Source: Eledone cirrhosa
Taxonomy: Eukaryota
Assembly (NCBI GenBank): GCA_964016885.1
Contig: OZ024756.1
Span: 27,590,001 to 27,654,000 of the forward strand
DNA length: 64,000 nt
Reading direction: 5' to 3'
The notes beneath the pieces are model-generated. The model worked only from the letters and a program-made list of their open reading frames with translations, was not told the origin of the DNA and made no database searches. The translations under genes were made by a program, and so were the position numbers. The number at the start of each line of letters is the position of its first letter. Position 1 is the stretch's first letter. Below, piece by piece: positions 622 to 60,845 of this stretch.

Positions 622-664
622 ACGATGTACTAGTTTCAAGCTTATTAGCTATCGTCAGCATCGT
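622..664 (-). ncRNA. Type I hammerhead ribozyme
   Basis: ACGAUG-CUGACGA-UAGCU AAUA AGCUU-GAAA-CUAG-UA-CAUCGU, with a 6-bp stem I. A copy with damaged stem I lies at about 60406-60440. Confidence 0.8.
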
Positions 665-1184
665 ATACCTTCCTGTCAGATGATTGAAGTCTGAAAGTAT
701 ATACTTTCCTTATGCGCATTAACGGCTGAGCAGCCTAATTTGCATATCGAGTGAGTTAGTCGGCCGGGCGCACCGAAAACGATAAATGGAAAAGAATGAA
801 ACGAAATACATACTTACATTTAAATAAATATATATATACATATATATACTTTTTTATGATTTATTGCTAAAGAATAAAAGATAATGATAAAATAAAAATG
901 TATTTTCTAAATAAAACGAGGCCTCAGTGTTGGGAGGGCTGAACTATAGCTTATTGAACTCATACGTACTTCTACCACTGATGTGAATGCTGGACTCTGA
1001 CGGTGCAGACAAACGAAAACCTGGATGCAGGCAGCAGAGCTGAACGGCATATGGCTGGTTAAGGGTTGCCATCAGGGAGGAATCAGGTAGGAAGAATATC
1101 CCGAGAGTCATAGAAGAGGTCCAACTCCGGTGGTATGGTTACATCTGGCGTAAGGGTGATTCAAGAGTCCTGATGAGATGGTTC

Positions 1185-1680
1185 ACACCACCACCACCAC
1201 CACCACCACCACCACCACCACCACCACCACCACCACCACCACCACCACCAACAACAACAACAATACCGACAACAACACTACCATCACCACTAACAACACC
1301 ACCATCATGATCACAACCACTACCAACACCAACAACAACAACAACATCAACAATACCAACACCAACACCAACACCACCATCACCACCACCATCACCACCA
1401 CCACCACCACCACCACCACGAACAACAACAACACCATCATCACCACCACCACCACCACGAACAACAACACCATCATCACTACCTCCACCACCACCACCAC
1501 CACCACCACCACACCACCAACAACAACAACAACAACACCAACATCACCAACAACACCACCACCACTACTACCGCCGCCAACAAGAACAACAACAATAGCA
1601 ACACCACCAACAACACGAACAACACCATCATCACCACCAGCACCACCAACAACAACAACACCACCACCACCACCGCCGTC
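1185..1680. repeat. (CAC/CAA)n trinucleotide array
   Basis: Seen directly. Confidence 0.95.
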
Positions 1681-2199
1681 AACAATTAGAATTGGCAGTA
1701 TCGGTAAAGCGTCGGACCCCATGCCACTTGGTGTAGGGTTACGGCTCTTTAAGTTCTGAGTTCAAATGCCACCGAGGTTAGCTTTTGCCTTTTATTCTTA
1801 CGAGGGGTCGATAAAATAAAGTACAGGAAGGCGCTGGGGTGGGGTTAATCGACTTTCCCCTCCTCTGAAAATTGTTGACCTTGCACTTAAATTAGAAACC
1901 ATTACATGAACCGTAGTCATACATTTCTTAGGCCCACGATCGTATGGTCATGATTTTGATTCTCGGACCAAGTGACATGTGGTGCCATTAATCAAGACAC
2001 TTTTTTTCACATTGCTCCAGTCCATTTAACCGGGAAAAAATGCGTTGTACTTGTAATTGAAGAGACCAGCTTTGTTACCACGACAAACCGGATGTAGTTT
2101 TATTGCAGTCTCCACAATAAACCGTTAAAAAGCTGTAACTACTCCAATCATGCAACAACAATTTGATTTTCTACTTGCTAGACATGGGTGACAGTCTTC

Positions 2200-2310
2200 A
2201 AACACTTCTTCCAGCGGGTCCTGTCAGAAGCAACCGTTTCCAATTGATCCGGCTGGATCCCCAAGCGAGTCCAGTCGAGCTCATAGATGTTATCCATACA
2301 TCTTGGTCGC
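2200..2310 (-). mobile_element. Old RTE C-terminal fragment (a similar piece lies at about 45790-45920)
   Basis: The minus strand encodes WLDNI-like..LGIQPDQLETVASDRTRWK; both loci match each other. Confidence 0.55.
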
Positions 2311-56936: not shown

Positions 56937-57159
56937 CCCTCTTCCTGTTATTTCAAGCGTTAACCTAATATATTCCATCCATATATTTTACCGATTGTGT
57001 TGTTATTTCTGTTTATCTTTTACATACATATATATATGTATGCATATATTTGTATATATGTATATATATATATATATATATATGTGTGTGTGTGTCTATA
57101 CATACATACACATACACACACACATATATATATATATACACATACCTATATATACAAAA

Positions 57160-59390
57160 TATATATACAAAACGACATCAATGCACTACTAAAAAAACTA
57201 CGTAACACCAACGGTATTATAGTAAAAGCGGACAAAACATCAAACGTATACACCATGAGCCTTAATACATACAATAACCCTATACGCCGTGAATTACACA
57301 AAAAATACAGGAAAACTATGGAATCTACACTCACTAGCATTAATAACGAAGGACTTAACATAGTAAAAAAACTGAAAATGTCTGATAGAACCGAGCCTCT
57401 GACCCCTTGTAAACCCACATTTAATCTGAAAGATCATAAAAATAACTTCGAAACTGACCCTACTATTAGATTAATATGCCCATCGAAATCGGATATAGGT
57501 AGAATTAGCAAGTATATACTAGATAGAATAATAGCACAAATTAAAGACAAACTAATAATTAAGCTATGGGGTAACACTAACGAAGCAATAGATTGGTTTA
57601 GCAAAATAGACAATAAGGAAACATCCGACTTCATACATCAATGACTACTACTCCTCCATTTCCCCAGTACCCTAAATAAGGCACTAACCTTTGCACAGAA
57701 AAACTCGGACCTGATGAAATTAGAATAACACTAGCTGCTAGGAGAACTATAATGAGGTTCGATAATAGTTACTGGGAAAGAAAAAAAACAGACAGAATAG
57801 CTTCGATATCACTATGGGATCTAGCGACTCAGCTCAAGTAACAGACATAGTTGGAATATATATATAGCGCATAACTTACATAAGGAATTTAATAACCCCC
57901 AAGGAGGAATTTATAGAGACGATACACTCCTTTTAGCTAAACACTTAAATAATCAAAACTTGGAAAGATTACGTAAAAACATTAGAATGTTCTTCAATAA
58001 ACTAGGCCTAGGCATCACTTTCGAACTTAATTCTAAAAAAGCTAACTTCTTAGATGTAACGCTCAACCTAAACACAGGACTAATAGAGCCCTTCCATAAA
58101 AATAACGAAAATCTAGCATACATTAGTTATAACTCAGACCACCCTCGCTCCATAATTAACTCCATAGCACATAGTGTATCCCTCAGAATTTTACGCCTAT
58201 CTTCTAACCTAGAGATTTTTAATGAACACGCGAACTACTATAACATAGCTTTACTTAAGGCAGGCCACAAGGAGGGGTTCAAATACATACCAGATAGAGA
58301 CAACAACAACAAACCTAACGACTACAACACCACCCACACCTATAGAAATAGCAAATATAGGACTAAACATAGAAATAGATAACGAGCACCAGAAATAACT
58401 GAATCGAATACTAATATAAGGACCCCTAGGAACTATAGAAAATCCAGAGATAGGAAATACTTATGGTTCAATCCAATATTTAACTCCTCTATAAAAACCA
58501 AACTACCTCCTACATTCTTTAAACTAATTGACAAGCACTTCCCTAAACTTCACAAATACCATAAAATCTTTAACAGAAAAACTATCAAACTGTCTTACTC
58601 TACTGCAGGCAACATAGAATCACACATACATAAAATTAACTATAGAAGAATCTCCTAATGAAAATAACCTACAAATAAACACCATAACACCAAATACAAA
58701 ATACAAACACATAACAACATCACAACCACACACGTCAGAACGCATCACAACAAAATATTAACAAACCCAAATCTCAGCCCATACATAACAACATACAAAA
58801 CCGCAACGGAGAACCTGCACACAGAAAGGCCTCCAAATGTAACTGCCACTTACCGGATAAGTGCCCACTACAAAATAGATGCCTGGAATCAAATATAGTG
58901 TACCTGTGTACTATAAATTCGAGCAACTTAGCATGGCACTACATAGGTTCTACGGCTGGGGAGTTAAAAAAAATGGTACGTCCATAGACATTCTATGAAG
59001 AACCGTAGACTAGTGAACACAACAACGCTGGCCAATAAAATCTGGCAGCTTAAGGATACAAACCAAGAATACAGGATTAGCTGGTCGAAATTATCGGGAG
59101 CAAAGGCCTACACAAATGGAATATCCCACAGTAGACTTTGCAATATGAAGTTGTTCCATATTTTAAAGTATGACAAACTGCTGCTTAACAGCAAAATAGA
59201 ACGGTCAATTTTCTGTAGGCACAAAGCAGCTACTAAATTCGCAAATTTCAAACCAACATGATTCGATCCAACAATCTCATAATTCAAGCTGAACCACTTA
59301 TTAACTGTCAATAGACCAACTAATCACTAAATCAACATCATAATCTCCTAACCTTTCTTCCTTTCACTCTCTATCCCTAAAACTTATATA
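57160..59390 (+). mobile_element. Second Penelope-like retroelement (same clade, different family), multiply frameshifted
   Basis: IVKADKTSNVY, FNLKDHKNNF..P.IRLICPSKSDIG, FDITMGSSDSAQV, GIYRDD, ANFLDVTLNL, SDHP, WFNP, CNCHLPDKC (CxCx5C), YIGST, KIWQLK and CRHK, spread across ORFs 56997-57644, 57960-58382, 58995-59261 and the intervening frames. Confidence 0.9.
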
Positions 59391-59719
59391 AAGACTGGTG
59401 GATTGGCAGTATCGGCAGAGGGTCGGACGCCATACTTTGACGCATAGAGTTACGGCCCTTGCCATTCTGAGTTCAAATCCTGCCGAGGTTAACTTTACCT
59501 TTCATCCTTACGGGGTCGATAAAATAAAGTACCCGTAATGCTGCCCTTGTGCCAAAAGTAGAAACAATTATTATTATTTTTTTTTTATCGACCTCGAATG
59601 GATGAACGGCAAAATTGACCTCGGTGGGATTTGAACTCAGAGAGCAGAGAGTCGGAATGAATACTACAAAGCATTCTATCCGATGTTCTAACGATTCTGC
59701 CAATTCGCCCTCTAATGAA

Positions 59720-60020
59720 CCTAAATTCTGTAACTACAGAATATATGGAGATTAAGAGACAAGAATCTATCATATTGTTTCTGGCAGGTGTGCCTTAGAC
59801 AAAGTTGTGTATAAAAAGAGACAGGGCTGCTTTCAAGGAGTGGGAACCATGCCAGCTTTATAAAATACGAACAAAACAGATGATATATGCCTATATATAA
59901 CAATAGACTTTCAGGAAAACATAAAATAATTATATTTGAGATATGCTGATTCGTACAGATAGGAAGATTACTGAAAATCGACCAGATGTTACGTTAAAAA
60001 ACTACGAGAAAAATAAATAT
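59720..60020 (+). mobile_element. R4/Dong-like LINE fragment (restriction-like endonuclease region)
   Basis: IYHIVSG..L.K.VYKKR and DMLIRTDRKITENRPDVTLK. Confidence 0.7.
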
Positions 60021-60845
60021 CTCTCAGTAAACACACACACACACACACACACACACACACACACACACACATGTATGTATGTACGAGAAAAATAAATCTC
60101 TCTTAGTAAACATGAATTCCAACAGAAAATTATATTAACATATATATATGTTATTTTCTGTTAGTATATATATATATATATATATATATATATATATATA
60201 TATAAGTATGTATACGTACATACATATATGTATACACACGTACAGTAGTATGTATATATATATACATGCACACATATATATGTACGTATGGATTCACCGA
60301 ACATTTATTATAATGCTCGGTGTGTTTATAAACAAACATCCCGTATTAAGCCGTAGTGTCTAGCAACCATCGTTGCTCGTTTGTTCAACACTGACAAAGG
60401 AACGCTGTACTAGTTTCAAGCTTATTAGCTATCGTCAGCAACCTATACCTTCCTGCCAGATGATTGAACGTCTGAAAGTATAGCCGTACTAAGAGTGGGA
60501 AATGAAATTTCGTTTCATTTTTTCCGATTATATATATATATATATATATATACATTTCGAAAATATTCTTACTATATATATATATATATATGTAGGAGGT
60601 GAGTTTTATTGTAGCACAATAAAGCAATGCAAATATCGGATAAGTAGCACGGTTGTTTTTCAATTATTTACATATTCATTTGCATATTCACCCATAAGTT
60701 TGAAAAATCCCTAATACATTTCCACTATCCAGAGAATATCCAACCGATAAGGTATGATTTTCATGGGTATGTCTCTATAAAACAAACTTTGTATTTTATC
60801 TGAGGAAAGTGTACCAATGTGTTTTGGTATCCTTGAAATATATAT

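Follow-up and report, generated by a model that had tools for sequence, protein, structure and literature searches.

Hammerhead ribozymes between the TA repeats of an octopod genome

We analysed 64,000 nucleotides of the Eledone cirrhosa genome (GenBank assembly GCA_964016885.1, contig OZ024756.1, positions 27,590,001 to 27,654,000 of the forward strand), a single 64-kb stretch that is called the window below, that supplied all counts from this genome and in which positions are numbered from the first letter. The window is AT-rich. It contains 135 (TA)n runs of at least six repeats, written (TA)6+, one intact gene, numerous copies of a short interspersed nuclear element (SINE), fragments of long interspersed nuclear elements (LINEs), two broken open reading frames (ORFs) of Penelope-like elements (PLEs), and islands that carry type-I hammerhead ribozymes. 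Twenty-three complete hammerheads were found, in 13 families (A, B, C1, C2, D, E, G, H, I, J, L, M and N), together with at least eight partial copies. Each complete motif combines the CUGANGA and GAAA boxes and UH with stems I–III and ends at stem I; the core is standard in 19 of the 23, and in four it carries the U4C substitution. The union of three descriptors gave 22 of these motifs, and the one at 56901, which failed all three, was added by hand.

A sequence-only reading of the window, made by a model without database searches, had listed about 20 hammerheads parked in TA microsatellites. Hammerhead parts were present at all 20 listed sites, and at 14 of them the motif was complete with the CUGANGA core (622−, 8457−, 11699+, 13990−, 14275+, 16024+, 16389−, 20248+, 26847−, 26935+, 35001−, 39576+, 56901+ and 60406−). 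The claim that the core is kept throughout held for these 14 and failed to mention the U4C variant at 9880+, 11956+, 15302− and 19573−; the two remaining motifs, at 12698− and 25635+, are incomplete, an inversion junction having cost them the 5′ strand of stem I. Five complete motifs had been missed, namely four family D copies (7617, 13673, 19388 and 37217, all +) and the motif at 34520–34641 (−). The resulting density, one complete hammerhead per 2.8 kb, agrees with the earlier estimate of roughly one per 3 kb. The spread is uneven: 16 of the 23 lie between 7.6 and 27 kb and none between 40 and 56 kb.

Comparison with dinucleotide-shuffled controls, which the sequence-only reading had proposed as a check, came out clearly for the motifs, with 12–14 matches against a mean of at most 0.02 per shuffle. 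The strict type-I descriptor gave 12 matches, compared with a mean of 0.02 (maximum 1) over 100 global and 100 200-bp-block shuffles, and none in the reversed or complemented window; nine of ten decoy cores gave no match with it and one gave a single match. Standard-core matches numbered 13 with a relaxed descriptor (none in 25 shuffles) and 14 with a long-stem-II descriptor allowing helix II up to 100 nt (none in 60 shuffles). The Rfam check that had also been suggested bore the motifs out less well. The Rfam model Hammerhead_1, which is built with short fixed helices, matched two of the 23 at 31.7 and 29.1 bits, both under its gathering score of 34, and hence none at that score.

The helices differ among families. 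With the core boxes masked, three of 91 family pairs reached a similarity z of at least 3 (L–H at 4.7, A–E and M–G at about 3.0). The earlier claim of ten or more unrelated families thus stands as to number and, for the most part, as to dissimilarity in sequence, with the qualification that L, M, G, H and N share an architecture and that C1 and C2 share the start of stem II. In the six sequences of family D, 96.7% of helix cells are paired, compared with 32–54% when the structure is slid along the alignment.

Hammerheads are followed by TA runs on their 3′ side

The association with TA repeats was evaluated on 24 loci, four of them partial, with 34520 left out. On the 3′ side of the ribozyme strand, 19 of the 24 loci had a (TA)6+ run no more than 200 nt away, compared with 19% of background positions, in keeping with the proposed parking in (TA)n. 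The median distance to the 3′ (TA)6+ run was 130 nt at hammerheads and 696 nt in the background, and none of 20,000 resamples was as close. When runs on either side were counted, 21 of 24 hammerhead loci were positive versus three of 22 control SINEs. Because the link has a direction, the ribozyme marks the 3′ end of the element: hammerheads lie 20–220 nt from an element 3′ end that adjoins (TA)n.

Two Penelope-like ORFs lie among the islands

PLE1 (16642..19493, +) is a broken, 5′-truncated element of Hydra type with TA runs at both bounds. Its reverse transcriptase (RT) piece (16752–17417) is followed by a piece with thumb, linker and GIY-YIG endonuclease (17383–18045), about 1.45 kb of non-coding sequence and a family D hammerhead (19388..19453, +), whose cut site lies 49 nt before the TA run that closes the block. 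We infer that the ORF is continuous with this 3′ region and its hammerhead. PLE2 (57160..59261, +), also 5′-truncated and of Hydra type, is frameshifted and about 50% identical to PLE1 in the RT. Both broken ORFs have the order RT, then C-terminal GIY-YIG.

The clade-defining features of Hydra PLEs are DKT in place of DKG, a CxCX5C linker, the lack of CCHH, plus CxxC and CxH around a conserved E and N (section 11 of Craig 2021, PMC8557442). The change from DKG to DKT is seen in PLE2, and the region is missing from PLE1. Both ORFs have the CxCX5C linker, and in both the CCHH cysteine pair is absent, with one Cys only inside the GIY-YIG core. CxxC and CxH are intact in PLE1, and CxxC is damaged in PLE2. 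A further Hydra feature, the RWK motif, is N-terminal, and both ORFs are truncated at that end.

A scan of metagenome contigs with the PLE1 endonuclease gave 23 loci, of which three that end within 10 nt of the match were set aside. In 13 of the 20 relatives with more than 100 nt downstream, a set that includes two near-duplicate pairs, a standard hammerhead follows on the same strand 121–385 nt after the endonuclease; one of the others carries a G8A variant and six have no hammerhead. A (TA)n run comes after the hammerhead in seven relatives. An unrelated contig, L009, carries a Hydra-like element with an inverted second hammerhead copy across the TA run (2379–2542), with a C3U core in that second copy.

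Copies have variable 5′ ends and two fixed 3′ ends

Among copies of a family the 5′ ends vary and the 3′ ends are fixed, with two alternative 3′ ends per family. Counted in nucleotides after the cut, these are 21 versus about 89 in B, 54 versus 153 in C2, 49–50 versus 165 in D, 51 versus 152 in E, and about 58 versus 219 in M. Fourteen perfect short-spacer inverted repeats lie outside simple repeats, the longest with 221-nt arms of 100% identity, and in inverted pairs one arm is short and the other long. Truncation at the 5′ end, partial tandem or inverted copies and a one-sided tail, all part of PLE structure, occur together. Inverted 5′-truncated copies and a one-sided tail of 30–40 bp are described for PLEs (Craig 2021, PMC8557442), and two internal RT start sites account for the PLE tail in vitro (PMC11167929).

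Family B shows the pattern at three loci. The inverted insertion at 8370..8566 (−) holds a complete hammerhead (8456–8506, −) with an 89-nt tail, and an opposite arm without the stem I 5′ strand and with a 21-nt tail. In the insertion at 25510..25695 both arms are incomplete, the junction falling inside the core. The insertion at 26764..27001 holds two complete hammerheads (26847–26897, −; 26935–26985, +), and its stem I differs from that of the 8456 copy by one compensatory change, from A-U to C-G. The C2 insertion at 13840..14380 consists of fully complementary arms (13939–14159 and 14160–14380; 100%) with hammerheads at 13990–14044 (−, tail 153 nt) and 14275–14329 (+, tail 54 nt); another C2 copy (16389..16443, −) has the long tail. 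Family E occurs with a 51-nt tail at 20252..20289 (+; 31.7 bits with Rfam Hammerhead_1) and with a 152-nt tail at 35005..35042 (−; 29.1 bits).

Besides the PLE1 copy, complete family D hammerheads lie at 7617..7682 (+), with TA 50 nt past the cut site, at 13673..13738 (+), the 3′ end of a non-coding copy of about 1 kb (12802–13780), and at 37217..37282 (+), in the short arm of an inverted pair (36962–37333), the opposite arm of which carries a deletion in the core and a tail of 165 nt. A D-like hammerhead (60768..61088, +) is split by a SINE (60845–61030), whose insertion point is precisely the cleavage triplet and which has apparently duplicated its target. The family F hammerhead (12613..12805, −) is split by an inversion, its 3′ part lying on the minus strand and its 5′ half on the plus strand at 12786. 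Across 12613–13780 this F end (−) meets the D copy of about 1 kb (+) in a head-to-head junction, so oriented that each 3′ end faces TA; a template switch between two different PLE RNAs is a possible origin of the junction.

Family A comprises a complete copy with a palindromic helix III (622..664, −), a second whose stem I has decayed to 4 bp (60404..60442, −; 88% identical to the copy at 398–701), and a fragment that begins inside stem II and comprises the 3′ half of the hammerhead plus tail (34020..34130, +). C1 hammerheads lie at 11699..11743 (+) and 16024..16064 (+), with a partial third copy at 15647. The family I block (39078..39841, +) has a layout like that of a pseudo long terminal repeat (pLTR), with a complete hammerhead at 39576–39657, a partial direct repeat (39143–39306, similar to 39669–39841) and an inverted piece (39078–39143). 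The minimal hammerhead J (56901..56936, +), accepted by hand, has a 4-nt palindrome as helix III. It was considered as the pLTR of PLE2 and rejected: a microsatellite lies between J and the PLE2 ORF, which is itself 5′-truncated. K (30893..30923, −) is a 5′ half only, with core, helix II and GAAA, and the sequence upstream of it gave no tblastn match to the PLE proteins of the window. Inverted-repeat islands at 38365–38757, 36657–36730, 38157–38260, 10101–10271 and 7846–7976 also adjoin TA runs. In some of them all that is left of a hammerhead is its GAAA/helix III half, in others there is nothing of it, and they are likely to be more truncated PLE ends.

The copies span the cleavage site and no copy in the window starts at cut+1, which suggests a mostly uncut template. 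Such a template agrees with the result from Anolis, where uncut RNA is the main substrate. The hammerhead fold contains six of the 5′ ends, at −14 to −40, and RT may stall or switch template there.

A U4C group with long helix II

A scan of core variants (18 single substitutions plus C3U/G8A) produced matches only for U4C (four) and A9G (one, the deletion-damaged family D arm). Four of 14 U4C boxes completed a hammerhead, versus 0.02 in shuffles. They belong to L (9880..10000, +; 92-nt helix II of −25 kcal/mol), M (11956..12061, +; 81-nt helix II, 219-nt tail), G (15302..15358, −; 30-nt helix II) and H (19572..19666, −; 7-bp stem I, 62-nt helix II); for M, a relative at 38928–39072 ends after about 58 nt. 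The helices of the four families are dissimilar, and what they have in common is C4, an A before GAAA, a helix II of 30–92 nt and a perfect 8-nt palindrome, which in L lies in helix III. Family N (34520..34641, −) has the long helix (95 nt) and the palindrome with a standard U4 core. The core of H is able to pair with the 3′ strand, and the lowest-energy fold sequesters it.

CpG sites tend to be removed through methylation. Since four independent U-to-C decays at a single position are unlikely and C4 creates a CpG, we read U4C as a lineage trait, on a sample of four single copies, none of them joined to an ORF. U4C was absent from the 23 metagenome loci. In the literature searched it appeared only as a viroid variant, and Lunse et al. 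2017, on PLE hammerhead variants, may describe it. In the viroid it lowers activity in vitro and still permits infectivity (PMC3088659).

Most copies are predicted to be inert

In most families helix III forms a palindrome, perfect or nearly so, and offers only 0–2 bp in the monomer; in B, F and I it offers 3–4 bp. Minimal PLE hammerheads cleave poorly and as dimers (PMC4209133), and a PLE hammerhead needs PLE protein (PMC11167929). Inverted pairs cannot form such a dimer and would pair as long double-stranded RNA (dsRNA), so that, with the short palindromic helix III, most genomic copies are likely to be inert debris on the predicted folds.

Origin of the islands

We consider it very probable that the islands carry real type-I hammerheads which are the 3′ ends of many 5′-truncated PLEs, at least partly of the (TA)n-targeting Hydra clade. 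This reading rests on the motif controls, the directional 3′ TA link that SINEs lack, the two PLE ORFs, the precedent of Hydra-1_Obim, the metagenome relatives, the two 3′ ends, the inverted repeats, the positions of the 5′ ends, the octopod host and the abundance of PLEs in O. vulgaris. Hydra-1_Obim, from Octopus bimaculoides, prefers (TA)n and has its hammerhead at 2403 of 2507 bp (Craig 2021, PMC8557442).

Several observations weigh against this interpretation. The gap of about 1.4 kb between the PLE1 endonuclease and its hammerhead is longer than the 121–385 nt of the relatives, so the block may consist of two adjacent insertions. PLE2 has no 3′ hammerhead of its own, and a SINE lies at about 59395. 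Assignment of both ORFs as Hydra-clade-like, at least in part, comes from motifs and a by-eye comparison with the printed Hydra alignment rather than from a tree, and Pfam recognised a domain in none of the seven ORF pieces. Only one of the 13 families, D, is physically joined to an ORF, and for the other 12 the link to a Hydra ORF is presumed. Covariation in family D is not significant in its six sequences (79 of 500 shuffles were as high), the minimum-energy fold of most copies is not the hammerhead fold, and seven of eight folded motifs have a z weaker than −2. In the family I inverted pair the arms begin 8 and 16 nt past the cut (+8 and +16), as a cleaved template might produce, and the tails of 70–160 nt exceed the described 30–40 bp. 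Finally, J and K resemble the minimal Poseidon/Neptune-type motif, and given this resemblance other PLE clades probably contribute.

The sequence-only reading had left open a PLE or a retrozyme origin, and the PLE half of that claim is the one that fits. Were the islands non-LTR retrozyme monomers, or short non-autonomous elements of another sort that PLE proteins move by way of circular RNA, the lack of an adjoining ORF in 12 of 13 families and the ORF-less D copy of about 1 kb would be expected, and a 2026 preprint traces animal retrozymes back to the ends of PLEs and mentions numerous monomers. We nevertheless regard this as unlikely. The operational definition of a retrozyme needs two consecutive units, and the window has no tandem unit with two complete same-strand hammerheads and no array of head-to-tail 150–450-nt units with hammerheads; same-family, same-strand complete hammerheads within 5 kb are absent from it except for C1, at 4.3 kb. 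Variable 5′ and fixed 3′ ends fit truncation rather than unit-length monomers, and D traces to an ORF-bearing block.

It is very improbable that these ribozymes are a working library maintained by the host, in transcript processing for instance, even though 23 copies have intact cores and B, F and I can form 3–4 bp of helix III as monomers. Recent insertion accounts for the intact cores (arms are 100% identical), inversions, deletions or a SINE interrupt the motif in at least eight further copies, and family copies occur in both orientations and are decaying at 72–95% identity. The "hidden library" of the sequence-only reading is not one in any functional sense; the pattern fits 5′-truncated insertion debris of a kind that has been described, in Octopus as well. 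Least credible of all is that AT-rich DNA produced the motifs or palindromes by chance, or that they are artefacts of assembly next to (TA)n. The window is indeed AT-rich, and perfect palindromes next to microsatellites are an assembly risk, but shuffle and decoy controls are near zero, the arm asymmetry recurs at three B loci with locus-specific variants, and the same layout occurs in the unrelated contig L009. In addition, three public runs, which may include the source sample, contain at least half of the sampled PLE1-block words.

For the favoured PLE origin, the following course of events would fit. The GIY-YIG endonuclease, judging from PLE biochemistry, would nick TA tracts, and RT would begin downstream of the ribozyme, at either of two internal positions, which fits the two 3′ ends per family. 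Synthesis of cDNA would usually halt early and often fold back, which would account for the short inserts and for the perfect inverted pairs; the shortest insert still has the ribozyme. The copied RNA, to judge from the copy boundaries, would be mostly uncut. With helix III mostly a short palindrome, cleavage is predicted to need a dimer or PLE protein, and in inverted pairs the fold is predicted to be locked up in dsRNA. It is in a tandem or full-length parent transcript that the ribozyme would act.

Comparison with known elements and significance

The window elements resemble the Hydra clade and Hydra-1_Obim in DKT, the CxCX5C linker, the lack of CCHH, the C-terminal GIY-YIG, the (TA)n target and the octopus host, and in having a type-I hammerhead that lies about 100 nt from the 3′ end and whose helix III is a 3–4-bp palindrome (PMC8557442). 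They differ in that no core in the window matches the listed Hydra-1_Obim hammerhead by eye, all 26 listed Hydra hammerheads have a CTGA core and a short helix II (PMC8557442), PLE1 would carry a 3′ region of about 1.45 kb, and 13 families share 64 kb. With the minimal hammerheads of metazoan PLEs (Cervera & de la Peña 2014, PMC4209133) they have in common a mostly single, scattered occurrence and heterogeneity within a genome, opposite-strand pairs 100–700 bp apart, an extra nucleotide at 9/10.1, and a palindromic helix III for which function as a dimer is predicted. The core variant reported there is U3-A8, not U4C, and helix II measures 7–8 bp, compared with inserts of up to 95 nt here (PMC4209133). 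Poseidon PAc of Anolis (Frangieh et al. 2024, PMC11167929) provides a mechanistic model for the window, with its AT-rich target, two RT start sites that make the tail, uncut RNA as main template and a protein-assisted hammerhead; it belongs to another clade, its hammerhead overlaps the ORF start, and its tail is about 30–40 bp rather than 70–160 nt (PMC11167929). Non-LTR retrozymes are likewise non-coding, with type-I hammerheads, high copy number and a relation to PLEs (Cervera & de la Peña 2020, PMC7229834; Li et al. 2026 preprint), and are set apart by the variable 5′ ends, inverted arms and missing tandem units of the window.

Scattered, diverse PLE hammerheads (Cervera 2014) and Hydra-1_Obim (Craig 2021) are already published, and the headline will not surprise PLE specialists; literature searches for a survey of octopus hammerheads led only to the latter paper. 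Possibly new are the density, in this one window, the U4C long-helix-II group over four dissimilar families, and tails longer than described. Thousands of motifs in many consensus families, about 2,000–9,000 per genome, are reported for animals (PMC4209133), a level that the density here would far exceed, should the window be typical. PLEs make up 191 Mb, or 6.83%, of the O. vulgaris genome, in 190 families (2026 annotation). The hammerhead counts reported for Xenopus tropicalis (about 9,000) and for axolotl (126,247) correspond, given their genome sizes, to about one per 160–250 kb. Applied to a genome of 2.8 Gb, the window density would give about 1 million, a figure that sets differing descriptors side by side and extrapolates from a single, possibly hot, window.

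Tentatively, and with more doubt than conviction, we suggest that octopod genomes hold several hundred thousand to a million PLE hammerheads, at a density well above that of every animal genome reported so far, and with them an undescribed lineage in which U4C, the A before GAAA, a helix II of 30–95 nt and a helix-III palindrome of 8 nt are retained together and make up a ribozyme of reduced activity, gated by dimer formation or by protein. Should the density seen here extend across the genome, no natural source of hammerhead variants would be richer than octopods. The hammerhead offers a way to classify islands between octopus TA repeats that have no annotation, and Rfam misses it in all 23 cases at its gathering score. 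The U4C group offers natural constructs for asking what PLE hammerheads do, given copy boundaries that suggest an uncut template. More speculatively, perfect inverted arms could, if transcribed, supply dsRNA for A-to-I editing.

Neighbouring gene and other repeats

Other repeats in the window include at least 22 copies of one type of tRNA-like SINE, which shows no preference for TA runs, unlike the hammerhead elements. LINE-like RT fragments lie at 3180–5200 (−), 21050–22600 (−) and 32070–33080 (+) and end in short trinucleotide repeats; we take them to resemble RTE and CR1. A segment of about 410 bp occurs twice in near-identical form (8787–9200 and 45216–45626), each copy adjoining a TA-type microsatellite, and the descriptors gave no hammerhead in either. 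Rfam microRNA matches on TA/CA hairpins were under the gathering score and were dismissed. A 48-bp tandem repeat (48194–48354, 3.4 copies) contains core-like boxes without room for stem I and was rejected as a ribozyme. It lies just 3′ of an intact, single-exon beta-1,3-galactosyltransferase gene (46833–47894, +), whose best named matches are from Octopus bimaculoides (64%), O. sinensis (62%, over 78% of the length) and Argonauta (55%).

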